From the IMG/VR virus record IMGVR_UViG_3300037249_001000, positions 64,001 through 128,000 of that record: a stretch of 64,000 nt of DNA. One strand, given 5' to 3'. The notes below the pieces were generated by a model that saw only the letters and a list, made by a program, of their open reading frames with translations, was not told the origin of the DNA and made no database searches. The DNA comes from a virus. Taxonomy: Duplodnaviria > Caudoviricetes. Shown here in pieces: positions 2,767 through 62,674 of the stretch (position 1 is its first letter; each line of letters starts with the position of its first letter). The translations under genes and the position numbers were made by a program.

Positions 2767-4035
2767 ATCCCCTGGGAATTTAAAGAAATCTTTATAGTTA
2801 TCGTGAGTAGCTTTATCTCCTAGTTGAATAATTTTATTAAGTCTTTTAGAGAACTCCAATGTGAGCAAAGAACTAATAACTTCATTACATCTAAGACGTT
2901 TATTCTCTAATGCTAAATTGTCTTTCAGTCTCAATGAAGTAAATTCTTGCATCATCCATCTAATCAGTGTATAAATATCTTGTTTATGATACTGATGTAT
3001 CTTAACTGTTTTCTTCGTCGTTTCATCTAATAAACGTCCAAAGAAATTCAATATATCAACACCTTTATCATAATTATTAATACCCGAAATTTTCTTTATC
3101 CATATTCTTGGGTCATCAAAACTTTGAATAGTCAATCTATTTGTAGATACATGTAAAATACCACCAACTATACTTTGTAAATATGGATATTTAAGAAACA
3201 ACTTTTTATTCACTTTCAAATAACACTTTGTTGATATCTGAAAATAAATATTATATTTATCATTTAAATCAGGTTTAGTTACCAATTCAATAGAATTAGA
3301 AACACCTAAGAAATCCATTGCATTATCAAATCCATCTTTAAGATAGAAAAGTATAATAGGTATTTCTTTTCGGAACACAGTAACATTATATACTGGTAAA
3401 TTATATTCGTTACCGTCAATATCTAAAACATCAGCTGTATCGTTAATTACTTCTTCATCACTAATATTGTTATCCATTAATGCGGTTGCTTTAATAACAT
3501 CACGTTTAACTGCAATCGGCATCAATGATTTTAAAGTAACTGATGCTTTAGAAGTATAAGTTGATTTTTCAACCATCTGATAAATCAGATAGTATTTCTT
3601 TCCATGAATATAATAATATCCATTTTCATCCTGTAATGGAATGAGCATTTCTTTCTTATGCTTATAAACGTGCTTAACAAGTTTTCCTGTTTCTTTAAGC
3701 TTACCTTCTTCATCTTCTACTTTTTCTTTTTCCATTAAAGTTACTTCAAGGAAAACTGTAAGTTTACCGAAACGATTATCTTCGAGAAATTTATAATCAA
3801 ACTTCTCATTTTTCTTTTTCTTCTTTTCCCTTTTAAAAATATACTTGTTAATATCAATTTCTGACTGCTTTTCAGTGTATTCATAGCCAATAAATTTGAT
3901 ATTCTTAACAACTTCGAGACTCTTCCACGAGTCTACTACATAATTTACCAAGCTATCATCAGCTGTTTTATTCATTAGTGAATAATTTAAACTTGGTTCG
4001 AATTCAGATGAATATGATTTCAATAATGATTTCAT
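2767..4035 (-). CDS. rpoB: non-virion RNA polymerase beta subunit, N-terminal half, exon 1
   Basis: IPLQDENGYYYIHGKKYYLIYQ matches the beta region P..T..G.FIING.ERV.VSQ; DNLALENKRLR matches D.L.NRR; early motif upstream (4081-4088). Confidence 0.85.
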
Positions 4036-17116: not shown

Positions 17117-17157
17117 GAGAGTTGTGAAAGGAGGTGAAAACCAACTCTCTTTTTTTA
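17117..17157 (+). terminator. terminator hairpin containing GAAAGGAGGTGA
   Basis: GAGAGTTG...CAACTCTC plus T-run; copy of 14496. Confidence 0.75.
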
Positions 17158-17201
17158 TTTTTTTATAGTTATATATAATTTAGGTATACATATTAAATAT
17201 T

Positions 17202-17265
17202 CGGAGAGCAACACTCCTACGACTAATTAAAGTTGCAGTCACCCAAGACGTTAAAATGGGAGAAA
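17202..17265 (+). ncRNA. conserved structured 5' leader (putative tandem pseudoknots), copy 1
   Basis: 60/64 identical to 62219-62282(-); pairings GGAG/CTCC, GCAAC/GTTGC, GTC/GAC, CCCA/TGGG. Confidence 0.6.
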
Positions 17266-17276
17266 CGGAGATTATT

Positions 17277-18350
17277 ATGATTAGACATTATGAAGGAAAA
17301 TTAGGAGTATTTGATTATGATGATACTGAATGGGAAATTACAGAAACTGGTAGTAATCCTTATACACATGGTCGCTGTAAAGAAAGTCTTCGCTATATTG
17401 GAGATAAAGTTGAAGGTGAAGATATTATAATTCCCTTTGGAGTTAGTGATTGCTCTTATATGTTTGCAGGGTGCACATCTCTCACAACAGCACCTACGAT
17501 TCCTGAAGGAGTTAGTGATTGTGACTGCATGTTTATGGGGTGTACATCTCTTACAACAGCACCGATTATTCCAGATGGAGTAAGAGCTTGTTCAAGTATG
17601 TTTCATGGGTGTACATCTCTTACAACAGCACCTACGATTCCTGAAGGAGTTAGAGACTGTTGGGCAATGTTTAAGGGGTGCACATCTCTCACAACAGCAC
17701 CTACGATTCCTGAAGGAGTTACTGTTTGTGAATGCATGTTTATGCGGTGTACATCTCTTACAACAGCACCTACGATTCCTGAAGGAGTTAGAGAGTGTTG
17801 GGCAATGTTTGCAGGGTGCACATCTCTCACAACAGCACCTATAATTTCCAAAGGAGTTACTGTTTGTGAATGCATGTTTATGCGGTGTACATCTCTTACA
17901 ACAGTACCTATGATTCCTGAAGAAGTTGTAGACTGTTGGGCAATGTTTAAGGGGTGCACATCTCTCACAACAGCACCTACGATTCCTGAAGGAGTTATTA
18001 ATTGCTCTTATATGTTTGATGGGTGCACATCTCTCACAACAGCACCTACGATTCCTGAAGGAGTTATTGATTGTGACTGCATGTTTTGTGACTGTTCATC
18101 TCTTACAACAGCACCTCAAATTCCCGAAGGAGTTACAGATTGTTCATGGATGTTTAAGGGGTGCACATCTCTCACAACAGCACCTCAAATTCCCACAGGA
18201 GTTAGTGATTGCTCTTATATGTTTGCAGGGTGCACATCTCTCACAACAGCACCTACGATTCCTGAAGGAGTTATTAATTGCTCTTATATGTTTGCAGGGT
18301 GCACATCTCTCACAACAGCACCTGAAATTCCTGAAGCATACACATACTAA
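17277..18350 (+). CDS. BspA/DUF285-like 23-aa tandem repeat (LRR) protein
   Basis: 13 units IPEGVxxCxxMFxGCTSLTTAPx; start placed after GGAG RBS. Confidence 0.85.
   Translation: MIRHYEGKLGVFDYDDTEWEITETGSNPYTHGRCKESLRYIGDKVEGEDIIIPFGVSDCSYMFAGCTSLTTAPTIPEGVSDCDCMFMGCTSLTTAPIIPDGVRACSSMFHGCTSLTTAPTIPEGVRDCWAMFKGCTSLTTAPTIPEGVTVCECMFMRCTSLTTAPTIPEGVRECWAMFAGCTSLTTAPIISKGVTVCECMFMRCTSLTTVPMIPEEVVDCWAMFKGCTSLTTAPTIPEGVINCSYMFDGCTSLTTAPTIPEGVIDCDCMFCDCSSLTTAPQIPEGVTDCSWMFKGCTSLTTAPQIPTGVSDCSYMFAGCTSLTTAPTIPEGVINCSYMFAGCTSLTTAPEIPEAYTY
17430..18335 (+). repeat. 69-bp coding tandem repeat, about 13 copies
   Basis: ACATCTCT(C/T)ACAACAGCACC recurs every 69 bp. Confidence 0.95.
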
Positions 18351-18400: not shown

Positions 18401-18474
18401 TGTTTAAAACTTACTTTGATTATATATTATTTTTTTGTTTTGAAAATGTATTTTAATAAAAAGGAGATAATAAT

Positions 18475-20760: not shown

Positions 20761-20866
20761 TAATTAATTGGTTGGGGCAATAAAAAAATATTGCCCCAAT
20801 TGGTTATATATTATTTTTTGGACTGCGTAGAAATATGTAGAATTTATAAATAAGGAGATAATAATT

Positions 20867-22099
20867 ATGGGTAAGAAACAATCAGTGCATATTAGACGTC
20901 TTAATTGGGACATTTCCTTTTATGCCGATATGCTAGACGGTAACGGATTTCAAATAATTGAACCATCTGGTATTTCGATTAATGGTATGAAGAAAAAATC
21001 ATTATATGGTGCTTCATCACCATTATATGGTACAAGTTATGAAGATGAACAATCGTTTATTGAACGATATAGATGTTCATGTGGTGAATTTAAAGGTAGA
21101 TTATTTGAAGGGGAAGAATGCCCACTTTGTCATACTAAAGTAGAATATAAATCTAGTAATATTAATGTTACTGGATGGATTTCTTTAGGTATTAAAAGAT
21201 GCATTAATCCATACTATTTCAATATTCTTCTTTCAGCAATAGGTAAAAATGTATTTACTGAAATTATATTTAGTAAATATCGTGTTACTACAGACGGTCA
21301 GAGAAAGAAATTAACAGCAGATGACCATATGGATGTAGTACCGGAATCAATTTATTCGTTTATTGGTATGAATGAGTTTTATAATAATTATGAAGAAATT
21401 CTCACATATTTTAAAAATAAGAAGAAAAATAAAGCTCACACTTTTGATGTTTTATTAAAAGAAAAAAGAGCTGTATTTACTTCTCACATACCAGTATATT
21501 CGACAATGTTAAGACCACAATCAATTACATCCGATACATTTTATTTTGGTAGTATTGATAAAATTATTAATACATTATATTCACTTAGTGAACACTTAAA
21601 AGATGCAACAGATGTAGAAGAAGATTATATTCTGGAAAGAATCCAGAAAAAAGTTAATAAAATGTGGGACATTAACCTTGAATTAATCAATGGTAAAGAA
21701 GGATGGGTAAGACATCAATTGCTCGGTGGTTCAATGAACTATACTGCAAGAAATGTAATTATTCCCGATCCGACTCTTCATGATAATGAAGTTGATTTAT
21801 CATATAATACATTTTTGGAGATGTATAAGTATAAGATTATTTATTATATCATGCAACTTGATAATACATCATTGTCCAGAGCATATGAGACATGGAAAGA
21901 TGCATTTAGATTTGATGAAAAAGTGTATCAAATTATGTTACATGTATTGGATAAAGAACAACCAAGATTATTGATAAATCGAAATCCTACATTGAATTAT
22001 TACTCAATGATATTAATGAAAATAAGAACTATTAAAAAAGATATCACCGATTATACCCTGTCAGTTCCGCTTAGCATACTGCCAGGTCTTAATGCGGAT
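20867..22099 (+). CDS. rpoC: non-virion RNA polymerase beta' subunit, exon 1
   Basis: zinc finger CSCG...CPLC, LRP, GKEGWVR, YTARNVI, LINRNPTL, LNAD; continues after the intron as FDGD. Confidence 0.93.
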
Positions 22100-22455
22100 C
22101 AACTTTCAAGGTCCGAGAGCACAGTAATGTGTTTCTATGTACGTTGTGAACTCCTAACAAGAGGTGTGACGAAAGTTGCTAACGGTATCAGTTAAATAAG
22201 TCACTTAAGTTTAACTTAAGTAGAGCGAATACACTGACTAAGAAAGCCTGAGGTCCTGAAAAGGATAGCTTGGTAATACCGTGCTGTTATTTTTAAAAGT
22301 GATTTAAAAATAGTAGTGTAGAGACTAACAAAAGCAATTTTAAATTGTAAGTAGGGTAGGTTTTAGTTTGAGGGCTAGAATCGAAGTGCAACGCCCCTAT
22401 ATTAATATAGGGTGAAGATATAGTCCACGCTGTATCGAAAGATATGGGTTTCGTG
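22100..22455 (+). mobile_element. group I intron (no ORF) splitting the catalytic NAD|FDGD motif
   Basis: P1 CGGAU/GUCCG, P10 UCAAG/UUUGA, P7 AGAGACUA...GAAGAUAUAGUCC, terminal G; excision gives NADFDGD. Confidence 0.92.
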
Positions 22456-24786
22456 TTTGACGGTGATATCTTAAATATAATAGGTCTTATGAATAAAGCA
22501 TTTGTATTCATGTTTAGAAAATATGACCCAGTAATGAGAATGATTATTAGTAGAGATTCACGTCTCATCAATGAATACTTTTCTATCAATAAAGGTCAGT
22601 TAATTGATTTGTATACATTTGCAACTTATGATGGTGAAGATGGTTGTAATACTGAAGAATATTATCCTGAAGAAGAAACTATTCAGAAAGATAAGTTTAG
22701 TCTTTTAGTAGATTCACCTATTATAAATAATACAAGAGAATTAAAAGCATGGTTAAAAGATATATATATCTTAGAGGATTATTTAGAGTCATATGAACAA
22801 TATAGAATATTCCAGACTAAGATTTATAATATTCTTAAAGGCTGTTTTGTAATTCCTCAGTGTAGAGATTATCCTATAAGATTTAAATTTACGGCTAATT
22901 CAAAAGAATATGTATTACCATTAAGATTGTTTATAATAAATACTATTCTTTGGTATCCATTTGTAGAACTTAATGGAATAAATGTTTTAGATGAATCGTT
23001 TATCATATTTAATCCAGAAGTATTACCTAATATTGAAAATTATCTTAATGATAATTTAATTAGTATCCTTACTGAGTATCATGTTAAGCCTTCAAGTATG
23101 AACTATGCTATTTCAGAAGTTTTGTACAATCTTAGAGGTATTTCTAATGATTATTCTATTATTCTTGGTTTGGATTTTAATATTCCTATGTTTACAAAAC
23201 TTTATTCTGAAAATGATAGAATACGAGAAATAATGGAGTGTCATTTTGAAAATGATGCTCAACCACATGAAATTGAACAAGAATTATCTGTATTGGAAAA
23301 GGAATTTATCGGTATTGTTACTGGATTGAAAGATAACCATTTAGGTATTGCATTAAGAGCTCAAACAGGTATTAAACATAAACAGCTTACAGAGTTTGCA
23401 ATATCTGAAGGACTTAAACCAGATATATCTGGTAGAACTATTCCAATTCCAATTCAAACATCAACATTGATTGGTGGTACTAATACACCTAGTGCACAAT
23501 ATATTGATGCAGCTGCAGCTCGTAAGTCATTGATTATGAATAAAAAGGTTATGGGTATTGCAGGTCATTTTGGTAAAACAGTTCTTATGAGTGCTCGTAC
23601 TCTTAGTATGAGTACAGAAGTCTCAGATTGTGGAACAAAACATCTGGTTGCTTATGATGTTTTGAATAAAACTATTCTTAAGAAACTTACTGGTAAATTT
23701 TATAGACTTACAGATGACCCTGAAGAAGAATTAAAACTTCTTAATGCAAAGAAAGATAAAAATCTTATAGGTAAGACAATTTATGTACGTTCCGCTGCAA
23801 CATGTGCTTGTAGAAATCAACATCATGTATGTGCTAAATGTGTTGGATTAACTGCTGTAATTAATGCAGATATTTCAGATGGTATTTCAGCATTTGAATC
23901 AGAAGAAATTACAAAAGTTGTTAATCAGAATATTCTTTCTGCAAAACATTTGTTGTCAACAAATTCTGAAGAGATTAAATTCAATAAAGAATTTTATGAT
24001 TTCTTTACAATTGTAGGTGGTGAAATAAATCCGATTGTTAATGAAAATTCTAATGTTAATATAAAGGATTATGCTATTTATGTTGACCCAAGTGATATTG
24101 TAAAGATGGAAGAAATGGATGATGATTCATTGTACAATACAGTTATTGAAACTGGTAGATTCTTCATTCGTAATATCAATGATCCATCTGAACCTGATAT
24201 TGTTATTCAAGTAGAGGGTGAGAAAGAAATCTTTATAGAGGAAAGTATATTGGCTTTATTAAGATCTGGTAATAACATGATTAAGTTTACAGACCTTGAA
24301 GATGATGATAAACTCTTTGAAGTTATTATTATGAATAATGAGTTGACAAAACCATTGTATGAGTTGATGCATTTGTTGGATAAACAGAGTAAGGATACTA
24401 TTAATATTGATATTGATTATATTAGTAATAAATTCCTTAGTTTGGTAATTGATGCAAAGATAGATGTATCTGCTATCGCATGTGAGCTTATTATTAATAG
24501 ACTTATTCGTTCAGCTGAAGATATTTATCGCCGTCCTGATTTCTCAAAGGATACGTTAGAACCATATGTAATTTTTACAGTGAGAAAATCATTGGAAAAG
24601 AATCCATCACCTTTGATGGGGATAGGTTTCCAGAATATTAAACGTCAGTTGTTATCGAATGATTTGTTTGAAAAGAGAACTGAAACATCATATATTGATA
24701 ACTTCTTTAAACCAACAATATCAACGGAGAATTTGTCTAAATATGCTGTTTATTATGATGAAAACTCATTAAACAGTCCTAAATAA
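22456..24786 (+). CDS. rpoC: non-virion RNA polymerase beta' subunit, exon 2 (end of beta'-N plus beta'-C)
   Basis: FDGD, GLKPD, bridge helix AARKSL...AGHFGK, DCGT, VRSAATC...VCAKCVG, QNILSAKH trigger loop. Confidence 0.9.
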   Translation, partial: FDGDILNIIGLMNKAFVFMFRKYDPVMRMIISRDSRLINEYFSINKGQLIDLYTFATYDGEDGCNTEEYYPEEETIQKDKFSLLVDSPIINNTRELKAWLKDIYILEDYLESYEQYRIFQTKIYNILKGCFVIPQCRDYPIRFKFTANSKEYVLPLRLFIINTILWYPFVELNGINVLDESFIIFNPEVLPNIENYLNDNLISILTEYHVKPSSMNYAISEVLYNLRGISNDYSIILGLDFNIPMFTKLYSENDRIREIMECHFENDAQPHEIEQELSVLEKEFIGIVTGLKDNHLGIALRAQTGIKHKQLTEFAISEGLKPDISGRTIPIPIQTSTLIGGTNTPSAQYIDAAAARKSLIMNKKVMGIAGHFGKTVLMSARTLSMSTEVSDCGTKHLVAYDVLNKTILKKLTGKFYRLTDDPEEELKLLNAKKDKNLIGKTIYVRSAATCACRNQHHVCAKCVGLTAVINADISDGISAFESEEITKVVNQNILSAKHLLSTNSEEIKFNKEFYDFFTIVGGEINPIVNENSNVNIKDYAIYVDPSDIVKMEEMDDDSLYNTVIETGRFFIRNINDPSEPDIVIQVEGEKEIFIEESILALLRSGNNMIKFTDLEDDDKLFEVIIMNNELTKPLYELMHLLDKQSKDTINIDIDYISNKFLSLVIDAKIDVSAIACELIINRLIRSAEDIYRRPDFSKDTLEPYVIFTVRKSLEKNPSPLMGIGFQNIKRQLLSNDLFEKRTETSYIDNFFKPTISTENLSKYAVYYDENSLNSPK

Positions 24787-30055: not shown

Positions 30056-30144
30056 TGGTGCCGGTGACGAGATTTGAACTCGTACGGGTTATACAATCCG
30101 AGGGATTTTAAGTCCCTTGTGTCTGCCTATTCCACCACACCGGC
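30056..30144 (-). tRNA. tRNA-Leu(TAA)
   Basis: GCCGGTG acceptor stem, anticodon arm AGGGA-CTTAAAA-TCCCT, long variable arm, GTTCAAATC, encoded CCA. Confidence 0.95.
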
Positions 30145-30176
30145 AAATATTTATTTCCTATGTATATATAATTAAG

Positions 30177-30248
30177 CTGGGCTGGCGAGATTCGAACTCA
30201 CGGATGACGGAGTCAAAGTCCGTTGCCTTACCACTTGGCGACAGCCCA
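30177..30248 (-). tRNA. tRNA-Gln(TTG)
   Basis: TGGGCTG stem, ACGGA-CTTTGAC-TCCGT, GTTCGAATC; no encoded CCA. Confidence 0.93.
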
Positions 30249-30367
30249 TTATATTAGATGTTTTACTAATGACTCAGTTGGATCTACGTATAGGATATAG
30301 GAGTTGTCAAATAATATATCTAACCAACTGAGTCAAATTTTTCATTACGACTCTCTATTGAGTTGTA

Positions 30368-30443
30368 TGGTGAACCATCGGAGATTCGAACTCCGGACAC
30401 CTTGATTAAAAGTCAAGTGCTCTGCCTACTGAGCTAATGATTC
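30368..30443 (-). tRNA. tRNA-Lys(TTT)
   Basis: CTTGA-CTTTTAA-TCAAG, GTTCGAATC, CCA. Confidence 0.95.
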
Positions 30444-30452
30444 ATATAATAG

Positions 30453-30527
30453 TGCAGCCTCAGGGACTCGAACCCTGGACCAACCGGTTATGAGCCGGTA
30501 GCTCTAACCAAACTGAGCTAAGGCTAC
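30453..30527 (-). tRNA. tRNA CAT anticodon, probably Ile2 (lysidine-modified), possibly Met
   Basis: ACCGG-CTCATAA-CCGGT arm resembles Firmicute tRNA-Ile2; ends CTA rather than CCA. Confidence 0.85.
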
Positions 30528-61045: not shown

Positions 61046-61927
61046 ATGCTAATTCGTCATAATAAAGATTGCTCCGATATGGGTTGCGTATTTATTTCAG
61101 AAAAAAGTAATATGGATTGTAGAGATATTACTGGAGTAGATGTACATGATAAGCATGGTGTATTTTTTGTATCGTTTGATGCAAACTTACATTCATTTGA
61201 TGTAATTAATAGAAACAAACGTCGTTATCTATTATCAAATGTAAAAAGTGCTATTGAAGAATCGGAAAAGATTCAATCTTGGTTGGCAGATAATGCATGG
61301 TTTGGTGAGATGAATCACCCAACTCAATATTATAAAAGCCAAGAATTAACTCCTGAAAGATTACAAGACCCTGCATTGGAGAATAGGTCACATAAAATTT
61401 TAAGACCAACATTTAATGGTAATTTATTACAAGCACATATTGAAACAGCATCAGGTACAGATGTCGGTGTTGGTTTCGCTAAAGAAATTATTCAAGGATT
61501 AAAACCTGCATTTAGTTGTCGTGCTGTTGCTACAATGCAAATGATTGATGGAAAACCGACTGTACTTATTCGTAGATTAATTACATACGATTGGGTTCTT
61601 TATCCGTCGCATAAAGAAGCACATATTATTAGTGAACCAAAACTTGTTGAAAAGTGTGTTAATGTATATAAAGAAAGTACAAATGATAATACAGATGAAT
61701 ATGTACCTGACTTTATGATTTCATTAAAAGATGTGCTTAAAAATGTTGGTGAAATAGATGCCAATGTATCTACTATTATGGAATCGTTTGATTTAACATA
61801 TGATGATATAATTGGTGTTAATAAAAAGCATGATAAAGTTATTATTAAAGATGTGGATAATAGAATTTATGCTAATATAAGTCCTGAAACAAAACATAGA
61901 ATAGATGATTTCTTTTCATCATTTTAA
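61046..61927 (+). CDS. prohead core protease (T4 gp21-like)
   Basis: NRNKRRY, GEMNHP, SHKI, FSCRA, TYDWVLYPSH. Confidence 0.88.
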   Translation: MLIRHNKDCSDMGCVFISEKSNMDCRDITGVDVHDKHGVFFVSFDANLHSFDVINRNKRRYLLSNVKSAIEESEKIQSWLADNAWFGEMNHPTQYYKSQELTPERLQDPALENRSHKILRPTFNGNLLQAHIETASGTDVGVGFAKEIIQGLKPAFSCRAVATMQMIDGKPTVLIRRLITYDWVLYPSHKEAHIISEPKLVEKCVNVYKESTNDNTDEYVPDFMISLKDVLKNVGEIDANVSTIMESFDLTYDDIIGVNKKHDKVIIKDVDNRIYANISPETKHRIDDFFSSF

Positions 61928-61986: not shown

Positions 61987-62208
61987 TTATTTTTTATTTT
62001 TTAATCTATTAATCTCTTTTTTCCATTGGTTTGCAAACTCTCTTTCCGCTTCGTTTTTTGCTTTGGAAAATACTGAGTCAATCGTATTTTCCATTTCGAT
62101 TATACTTTCGGTCACAATATCTTCATGTGATCTTGTTGTATTTGCTTCCTTTTCGAGAATTTTATTTTTGAGGATTTCCTCGGGTCCTATAAATATCATT
62201 CTACCCAT
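61987..62208 (-). CDS. small standalone early protein
   Basis: TATATTAT at 62298, structured leader, AAAGGTGA RBS. Confidence 0.7.
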   Translation of the reverse strand: MGRMIFIGPEEILKNKILEKEANTTRSHEDIVTESIIEMENTIDSVFSKAKNEAEREFANQWKKEINRLKNKK

Positions 62209-62218
62209 AAGACTCACC

Positions 62219-62282
62219 TTTCTCCCATTTTAACGTCTTGGGTGACTGCAACTTTTATTAGACACAGGAGTGTTGCTCTCCG
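62219..62282 (-). ncRNA. conserved structured 5' leader (putative tandem pseudoknots), copy 2
   Basis: 60/64 identical to 17202-17265. Confidence 0.6.
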
Positions 62283-62371
62283 TTTATTACTATAAAAATA
62301 ATATATATATATATGAATTTAATTAAAATACGAAGAACTGTAAGATTTTATGTCTTACAGTTCTTCATTAA

Positions 62372-62638
62372 TTATCTATTGTTTTCTAAAAACATTTCTA
62401 AAGCCAACGCGAGTTGATCAGGACACGATGTATCTTTATTTCCACACTTGATATTTTTACATCTATCAATAACATCTTGTACGTTCATTCCTTTTACAAG
62501 ACTTCCAATACCAAGTTGATTACCAACACATCCGCCTACAAATTTTACGGAATTTATAATAAAATCTTCATCAACTTTATCAATATCAAAGTCCATTAAT
62601 CTACAACAAACTCCACCAGGTTCATATATAAATTTCAT
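62372..62638 (-). CDS. TSCPD-domain protein (TIGR03905-like)
   Basis: GVC...FVGGCVGN.LGIGSLVKGM...CGNKDTSCPDQLA. Confidence 0.88.
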   Translation of the reverse strand: MKFIYEPGGVCCRLMDFDIDKVDEDFIINSVKFVGGCVGNQLGIGSLVKGMNVQDVIDRCKNIKCGNKDTSCPDQLALALEMFLENNR

Positions 62639-62674
62639 GTTTATCACCTTTCCACTAATTAAGGATGAAACGGT

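Follow-up and report, generated by a model that had tools for sequence, protein, structure and literature searches.

In the preQ1-I riboswitch, the 5' strand of a first stem (S1) is followed by a short loop (L1), the 5' strand of a second stem (S2), a second loop (L2), the 3' strand of S1, an A-rich third loop (L3) and, finally, the 3' strand of S2. In phage T4, the leader pseudoknot of gene 32 is specific to a single, autoregulated gene and is located far upstream of the Shine-Dalgarno (SD) sequence, with an unstructured AU-rich tract between the two, and T4 RegA, a single factor, shuts off many unrelated early messages at sites which are unstructured and overlap the AUG. Additionally, the 5' stabilisers of mRNAs from Bacillus and from phage SP82 (STAB-SD and related elements) rely on a ribosome at an SD-like sequence or on a terminal hairpin, and need proximity to the 5' end. 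The subject of this work is a repeated 64-nt element found in a 64,000-nt window of phage DNA (bases 64001-128000 of the 139,539-bp IMG/VR record IMGVR_UViG_3300037249_001000, hereafter G000, with a CheckV completeness estimate of 58%). Based on comparison among related phages, this element is a new family of structured leader RNA of AR9-like jumbo phages, in which the widespread part is a 3' module with a predicted pseudoknot next to the SD sequence.

The resemblance to preQ1-I (RF00522) lies in the order of the elements, in the size (a predicted H-type knot of ~25-35 nt in a 5' leader) and in the A-rich third loop. The differences are that S1 has 3 bp here and is invariant, against 5 bp, that the conserved loop bases are others, that the SD comes just after S2 instead of within it, and that the downstream genes are unconnected to queuosine, with several copies per phage genome. 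Neither window copy, searched with its flanks, matched RF00522 at E<=10, and no genes for queuosine or preQ1 synthesis or transport were found among the downstream genes. Like the T4 gene 32 leader, the element has an H-type knot (a predicted one here) in a phage 5' leader, which in gene 32 is the nucleation or recognition site for a translational repressor protein; in contrast to both gene 32 and RegA, the knot described here abuts the SD, is present in several copies and precedes many different genes. Among the downstream proteins, Pfam and PHROG gave neither a single-stranded DNA-binding protein nor a shared domain, which is not what autoregulation of the gene 32 type calls for. Like STAB-SD, the element brings an SD-like run of purines close to the 5' end of a Gram-positive (phage) mRNA, which could stall RNase J1, but the known stabilisers have no conserved pseudoknot and, in the family studied here, proximity to the 5' end is not constant.

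Two further comparisons come from phages. In AR9, the early promoter (used by the virion RNA polymerase) was mapped by differential RNA sequencing (dRNA-seq) and primer extension as AAATATATATTAT-(6N)-G+1, and the early 5' untranslated regions (UTRs) carry an unexplained motif (Lavysh et al. 2017, PMC5312081). The early units of AR9 and PBS1 resemble the present case in having the same promoter consensus that lies upstream of most members of our family, as well as homologous split polymerase genes. The second of our two covariance models (R2, see below) had no match in AR9, and therefore the leader motif is not the AR9 5' UTR motif, or has diverged beyond recognition. In T4-type phages, the PeSL cassettes combine a sigma70-like promoter with a terminator stem-loop; they are short, repeated before small early orphan genes and may drive modular shuffling (Arbiol et al. 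2010, PMC2839356). A repeated regulatory stretch before small early orphan genes is also what we describe, although here the repeat consists of the transcribed leader alone, has a predicted pseudoknot fold and covaries across distant phages. The promoter-plus-terminator repeat of a PeSL was not found, since the similarity between copies starts after the promoter and leaves out the upstream terminators.

Judging from its polymerase genes, G000 is an AR9-like (Takahashivirus-related) jumbo phage. It encodes a split multisubunit RNA polymerase (Pfam RNA_pol_Rpb2_6 and Rpb1_2) and, in the Pfam scan, a phiKZ-type prohead protease. The best cultured match of its beta-subunit gene is AR9 g089 (the C-terminal half of the beta subunit of the non-virion RNA polymerase, nvRNAP), with 33.5% identity, followed by Staphylococcus and Listeria jumbo phages, and Fusobacterium phages also matched; uncultured relatives of 220-290 kb number in hundreds.

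Copies of the element in G000

The element occurs at 17202-17265 on the plus strand and at 62219-62282 on the minus strand of the window. The two copies are identical at 60 of 64 positions and differ only at element positions 18, 19, 21 and 27, all in the linker (P = 0.0075 for four random differences spanning 10 nt or less). An earlier account of the same DNA, made from its letters without any database search (the sequence-only reading), had reported this repeat, and re-reading both loci returned the same coordinates, strands and differences. The shared sequence runs from CGGAG to GAGAAA between unrelated flanks, and the window has exactly two occurrences of the invariant 37-mer, where 100 shuffles give an expectation of none. 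As had also been remarked, the element is GC-rich in an AT-rich genome, with 44% G+C against 27% for the window. The four stems drawn on paper (GGAG/CUCC, GCAAC/GUUGC, GUC/GAC and CCCA/UGGG) are present as written, and fall into a 5' module (pseudoknot 1, PK1) and a 3' module (pseudoknot 2, PK2), which are placed in the two loci as follows.

17117..17156, plus strand: terminator-like hairpin and T-run closing the unit upstream of copy 1 (GAGAGTTG...CAACTCTC, then T7)
17169..17186, plus strand: predicted AR9-type early promoter TTATATATAAT-N6-A, predicted start near 17186
17202..17265, plus strand: element copy 1, with 5' and 3' modules
17203..17236, plus strand: 5' module (PK1) of copy 1, with a 14-nt linker
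PK1 helices of copy 1, plus strand: GGAG 17203-17206 with CUCC 17214-17217; loop GCAAC 17208-17212 with GUUGC 17232-17236
17238..17260, plus strand: 3' module (PK2) of copy 1, with the A-rich linker GUUAAAA at 17250-17256
PK2 helices of copy 1, plus strand: S1, GUC 17238-17240 with GAC 17247-17249; S2, CCCA 17242-17245 with UGGG 17257-17260
17261..17279, plus strand: purine tract AGAAAC, SD GGAG (17267-17270) and start codon (17277-17279) of copy 1
17277..18350, plus strand: BspA-type leucine-rich-repeat (LRR) protein of 357 aa (Pfam LRR_5, E 5e-23)
62332..62366, minus strand: terminator-like hairpin of the TSCPD-domain gene upstream of copy 2
62291..62308, minus strand: predicted AR9-type early promoter ATATATATTAT-N6-A/G of copy 2, predicted start near 62291-62290
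62219..62282, minus strand: element copy 2
62248..62281, minus strand: 5' module (PK1) of copy 2; GGAG 62281-62278 with CUCC 62270-62267, GCAAC 62276-62272 with GUUGC 62252-62248
62224..62246, minus strand: 3' module (PK2) of copy 2; GUC 62246-62244 with GAC 62237-62235, CCCA 62242-62239 with UGGG 62227-62224
61987..62218, minus strand: SD AGGUGA, start codon (62208-62206) and open reading frame (ORF) of 73 aa, with no Pfam or PHROG match

The two genes which follow the copies (the LRR_5 protein and the 73-aa ORF) are unrelated, as the sequence-only reading had stated. That there were two copies was correct for the window and incomplete for the phage, given that the G000 record holds two more outside it. 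The third copy (genome 36266-36200, minus strand) is full-length and diverged: relative to copies 1 and 2, GGAG/CUCC is replaced by GGGA/UCCC and GCAAC/GUUGC by UGCUUU/AAAGCG, and the core GUCA-UCCCAAGAC...UGGGG is retained. The fourth (genome 37929-37892, minus strand), found with our covariance model R1, has the 3' module only, with CUG/CAG as the second helix.

No known RNA family accounts for the element. With Rfam 15, the whole window gave four tRNAs and nothing else at the gathering threshold, and both copies with their flanks gave only noise at E<=10 (small nucleolar RNA, microRNA and long non-coding RNA models), in line with the earlier account, which could match it to no riboswitch or ribozyme. 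Nested minimum free energy folding of the copies is no better than that of shuffles (z from -0.3 to -1.3), which is unremarkable because pseudoknots are expected to escape such folding; therefore, the support for the structure must be comparative.

Covariation in the 3' module and the optional 5' module

We searched 69 related IMG/VR records with two covariance models (R1, built on the 3' half of the element, and R2), which gave four matches in G000, eight in G035 (IMGVR_UViG_3300045988_139370, a complete genome of 231 kb, with a polymerase 32% identical to that of G000) and one each in G060, G064 and G065 (other G and L numbers likewise denote IMG/VR records and contigs), with no match at E<=0.02 in 62 of the 69. 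Weak R2 matches in G045 and G027 appear to be coding sequence and were rejected as members. A degenerate 3'-module pattern gave 40 matches in metagenomes, of which four were convincing (L019, L036, L024 and L026, where an AT-rich linker is followed by AGAAAG(A/G)... and then by ATG), three were doubtful (L033, L053 and L027) and the remainder were chance-like or coding. The good members of the 3' module thus number 19: four in G000, eight in G035, three in other IMG/VR relatives and four in metagenome contigs.

The layout of the module is GUC, loop, GAC, an A-rich linker (typically GUUAAAA), the 3' strand of S2, AGAAA(A)GG (the SD tract) and AUG. In every member the tract stands directly 3' of the S2 strand, with an SD and an ATG following in 19/19 and with 6-10 nt between tract and AUG. 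These are the features which the sequence-only reading had picked out in the window, namely an A-rich strand before the second stem of the second pseudoknot and a knot abutting the ribosome-binding site. S2, of 3-5 bp, joins the loop of S1 to the 3-5 nt that immediately precede the purine tract, and exists in at least seven versions among the 19 members (CCCA/UGGG, UCCCA/UGGGG or UGGGA, CCCAA/UUGGG, CCCGA/UCGGG, CUGUU/AACAG, CUGU/ACAG, CCCCG/UGGGG and ACA/UGU), with one decayed member, G035_g. Each of the pairs 2-5 occurs as at least two Watson-Crick types with both sides changed. These counts were made in Python on an anchored register, since the variable helix is misaligned in the alignments that the models produced (A6 and A7).

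The energies agree with these counts. The cognate loop/strand duplex averages -4.57 kcal/mol, against -2.35 +/- 0.48 for permuted partners, and neither 5000 permutations nor 2000 loop shuffles gave a value as good, in a permutation test which ignores the relatedness of the members; furthermore, the helix shortens when the register is slid. Since both main S2 types are found in G000 and also in G035, the helix classes must be old.

For S1 the situation is different, as GUC and GAC are invariant in 19/19 and it is the distance between them that varies (4-11 nt), which fits an RNA stem and not a DNA site of fixed spacing. A possible fourth pair flanking them (U-A, A-U, C-G or U.G) is seen in 13/19 members, and is the sole pointer, no more than a hint, to the pairing of the two conserved triplets. 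If S1 forms, the 3' module would be a classical H-type pseudoknot, with L1 of 1-2 nt, L2 of 0-3 nt (except for 5-6 nt in two members, G000_4 and the decayed G035_g) and an A-rich L3 of 5-10 nt. Of the four stems initially proposed, three show compensatory changes in homologues, as expected for a structured RNA (S2 and both PK1 helices, H1 and H2), and the invariant GUC/GAC leaves its own pairing unproven. Conservation is higher at the unpaired positions and in S1 than in S2, a pattern suggestive of sequence-specific recognition.

The 5' module was sought in the stretch of 62 nt preceding GUC, with a descriptor for a hairpin and for pairing of its loop with a segment that stops about 10 nt or less before GUC. 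An architecture that beats most shuffles and whose pairing ends 1-2 nt before GUC was found only in G000 copies 1-3 and in G064, the score being reached by 3-8 of 200 shuffles for the G000 copies and by 24 of 200 for G064. The helix sets are GGAG/CUCC with GCAAC/GUUGC, GGGA/UCCC with UGCUUU/AAAGCG and, in G064 (whose polymerase is 27% identical to that of G000), GGAG/CUCC with UACCU/AGGUG; the loop pairs with the 5-6 nt just before GUC, and the linkers have 11-14 nt. Three independent sequence versions of one design support the first pseudoknot of the sequence-only reading. Its tandem, 64-nt unit is, by the same comparison, largely upheld but resolves into two modules, of which the 3' pseudoknot with its SD is the widespread one and PK1, with four members, is an optional add-on. 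We had also considered a rival stem of our own, joining element positions 18-23 with 45-50, in which three of the four differences between copies 1 and 2 preserve pairing; it was dropped as a family feature, having 4 bp in copy 3, no support in G064 and no possibility of forming in the members with the 3' module only.

Place in the transcript and distribution

In G000, the motif TTATATATTAT-N6-G/A precedes ~25 convincing gene starts, both nvRNAP genes among them, and the motif of copy 1, TTATATATAAT, has one mismatch to this consensus. Examples of such promoters lie at window 18421-18437 and 20805-20821 (plus strand), the usual leader being unstructured and 25-45 nt long. More generally, the AR9-type consensus (A/T)TATATATTAT-(6N)-G/A precedes G000 copies 1-4, four of the G035 copies (a, f, g and h), the G064 copy and that of L019, and the promoter motif lies 9-25 nt upstream of most family copies. 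For G000 copies 1, 2 and 3, transcription is predicted to start 16, 9 and 10 nt ahead of the element, and for copy 4 it is predicted to start 13 nt ahead of GUC, so the position between an early promoter and the ribosome-binding site that the sequence-only reading had assigned to the window copies, with the motif 9-16 nt 5' of them, was supported. These motifs place the element inside early transcripts, and we expect it to be transcribed as a leader RNA, mostly of early messages, from starts that are themselves predictions. About four of the roughly 25 early-promoter units in G000 carry it. There are exceptions: L026 has a sigma70-type promoter in place of the AR9-type, and no promoter is found near G035 b, G035 c and a degenerate copy at G035 3400-3460. 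Judged by position throughout the family, the constant partner of the element is the ribosome-binding site, not the 5' end. A looser promoter expression (T4-N2-3-GTWWTA) had given 42 matches, against 37 in shuffles, and was dropped in favour of the AR9 consensus.

A role at the level of DNA or of the polymerase is the least probable of the readings considered here. The element would then be a promoter or an operator with a GTC...GAC inverted repeat, or a nascent-RNA element comparable to the put antitermination RNAs of HK022, which lie just downstream of early promoters and modify the transcribing polymerase. The site is indeed just downstream of early promoters and has invariant sequence blocks, and the GGGAGA after the linker in CCCA-type copies recalls the initiating sequence of T7-type promoters. 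Nevertheless, the GTC-GAC spacing of 4-11 nt is ill suited to such a site, covariation between the loop and a strand downstream of it is a property of single strands, a genome of >200 kb has only 4-9 copies, the covarying PK1 on the 5' side implies a transcript that starts ahead of the element, and a transcriptional function leaves the SD fusion unexplained.

The distribution of the family is patchy. The closest relatives, G001 (62% identity) and the contigs L079-L082 (80-92% identity), have no copy, the contigs ending near the LRR locus. The R2 scan of AR9, BpSp, Staphylococcus UFV_DC4, SA1 and Listeria LPJP1 gave no match, in a set which did not include the polymerase-matching Fusobacterium phages, and BLAST of the element against a collection of 50,697 phage records gave nothing. 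Neither the degenerate 3'-module pattern nor two exact patterns of the G000 sequence had matches in IMG/VR. The pattern search of 185,579 prokaryote species (one genome each) gave 13 chance-like, mostly coding matches, none of them convincing. Proteins are common to L019, L036 and the 250-kb relative G001. A ninth, degenerate copy in G035 (3400-3460, plus strand) has GGC for GUC, overlaps the end of the upstream ORF and looks like a decaying member.

Many of the copies within one genome are near-identical, so part of the family must come from recent duplication or gene conversion. This raises the alternative of a recombination or mobility cassette, in which the leader is spread by homologous recombination or gene conversion and shuffles early orphan genes, its fold being incidental. 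Its ingredients are the near-identical copies between unrelated flanks (60/64 for copies 1 and 2; G035 a/b/c and d/e/f/h), the orphan genes which follow them, the close-relative contigs that break near the LRR locus and the PeSL precedent (PMC2839356). However, the parts that make up a PeSL, promoter and terminator, lie outside the similarity, pairing in S2 and in the PK1 helices persists between diverged versions and between phages with polymerases only 27-32% identical, and the SD fusion is constant; recombination may account for the spread, not for the conservation, and as a full explanation we hold this alternative to be very improbable.

Several observations were made beside these. In five contigs from high-GC soil metagenomes (L030, L035, L039, L047 and L057), a stretch matched the search pattern, with a conserved GC hairpin GCGCGCAG...CTGCGCGC followed by GTCATCCCAAGAC-CAAACCA-TGGGAGAA; no SD or ATG follows it, and it is either a distant relative of the motif or a chance match. 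Around copy 2, the TSCPD-domain protein directly upstream lies at window 62372-62647 (minus strand), and the phiKZ-type (Peptidase_S80) prohead protease at 61046-61927 (plus strand) is convergent with the 73-aa ORF. Elsewhere in the window, the beta'-like polymerase gene (20867-24786, plus strand) is split in two ORFs (442 aa and 780 aa) with a gap of ~250 nt; the same gap holds a GIY-YIG endonuclease ORF in a 92%-identical relative (loci L079:2515-7124 and L080:3247-6810 compared), and the gene is a single 1187-aa ORF in an 87%-identical relative. The interruption is probably an intron or a mobile insertion, and the Rfam scan gave no group I intron match in the window. Four tRNA genes are clustered at 30059-30527 (minus strand; Rfam tRNA, 58-69 bits).

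Predicted role of the leader

The genes downstream of the family members are unrelated, comprising the LRR protein, small orphans, an AAA ATPase and a sigma-r4/alpha-CTD protein, which is the pattern of a trans-regulated regulon. The last of these follows the leader of G064, the only tandem-pseudoknot leader outside G000: it is a fusion of sigma-70 region 4 and the C-terminal domain of the RNA polymerase alpha subunit (alpha-CTD) encoded at L171:1541-2569 (plus strand; Pfam E 3e-9 and 1e-17), and is an unusual candidate modulator of the host RNA polymerase.

In the reading that we tentatively put first, the element is a leader pseudoknot of a new kind which regulates the initiation of translation in cis, and which is the operator of a post-transcriptional regulon with a trans-acting factor. 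The element probably controls the translation of its messages, a step that we infer from where it stands. The 3' H-type pseudoknot, with the end of S2 fused to the SD tract, would act in cis on initiation; the invariant GUCA...AAGAC-GUUAAAA core, displayed by the pseudoknot, would be the recognition site of a trans-acting factor of phage or host origin; and this factor, bound to a knot that adjoins the SD, would prevent 30S binding or set its timing on a set of unrelated early genes. A protein-bound translational operator was among the three mechanisms put forward in the sequence-only reading, and of these it fits best.

Several points weigh against this proposal. The phage is uncultured and its leader is known here from sequence alone. 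GUC/GAC never covaries, and a simple S2 hairpin with conserved flanks would also fit; many same-genome copies are near-identical, and the permutation test takes no account of relatedness. The fold does not sequester the SD, and we therefore see no sign of an on/off switch based on structure alone. As regards the postulated factor, no protein is common to G000, G035, G064 and G065 and yet absent from G001, G013 and G055, in a phyletic profile limited by the 58% completeness of G000, and no antisense or small RNA partner of at least 14 nt outside the copies was found in G000, G035 and G064.

The main rival, doubtful in our judgement, is a passive cis module which needs no trans-acting factor: the pseudoknot or pseudoknots would shield the mRNA from decay (as a roadblock to RNase J1 or RNase Y) and maybe keep the SD single-stranded, the outcome being longer-lived and better-translated early mRNAs. 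The short distance of the element from the predicted start in most copies (within 9-25 nt), the strong purine-rich SD directly after the knot and the tandem knots of copies 1-3, which recall tandem exonuclease-resistant structures, speak for it; the single-stranded 5' tails of 9-25 nt and the intercistronic copies (G035_b, G035_c and G035 3400-3460) oppose protection of the 5' end, the invariance of GUCA, AAGAC and GUUAAAA exceeds the needs of a generic stable structure, and with just 3 bp in S1 the knot would be marginally stable alone. The strict form of this idea in the sequence-only reading, a 5'-terminal block against RNase J, fits poorly, as some copies are 20-45 nt from the predicted start or intercistronic.

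That reading had also suggested a ligand sensor, which agrees badly with the unrelated downstream genes. As a small new riboswitch, the knot would bind a metabolite or ion reporting the state of the host or of the infection, and tune the translation of a subset of early genes. We regard this as unlikely, despite an element order as in preQ1-I with the 3' strand of S2 next to the SD, loop and junction bases which are highly conserved while the helix covaries, and a marginal stability that could require a ligand: the downstream genes have no function in common, an alternative fold sequestering the SD is not evident, an Rfam match of any kind is absent, and the element is lacking (at the level of exact patterns) in 185,579 cellular species genomes and patchy in close relatives.

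A related and quite unlikely idea would place the pseudoknot in a new class of small RNAs that serve as sensor or decoy, either as a riboswitch for a ligand yet to be named or through a core which mimics the 16S decoding site. The core GUCA / A(A)AGAC-GU(U/A)AA(A/C)A resembles GUCA 1405-1408 opposite AAGUCGUAACAA 1492-1503 in that site (E. coli rrsH); the motifs are short, the AUGGGAG part is absent from CUG-type members and the resemblance may be coincidence. If the mimicry were true, selected early messages would bind a partner that normally docks at the ribosomal A site; candidates are initiation factors, toxins or defence nucleases directed at rRNA, and aminoglycoside-like compounds.

Next to nothing is known of post-transcriptional control among jumbo phages that carry RNA polymerases of their own, the AR9-like ones included. 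A compact, covariation-supported motif of ~30-64 nt, fused to the ribosome-binding site in a defined group of early genes, conserved across phages with polymerases only ~30% identical and with no convincing cellular copy found, gives a handle on the timing or protection of early messages. If a ligand or protein partner were found, the element would represent a new class of phage riboregulator and a portable part for translational control in low-GC hosts.

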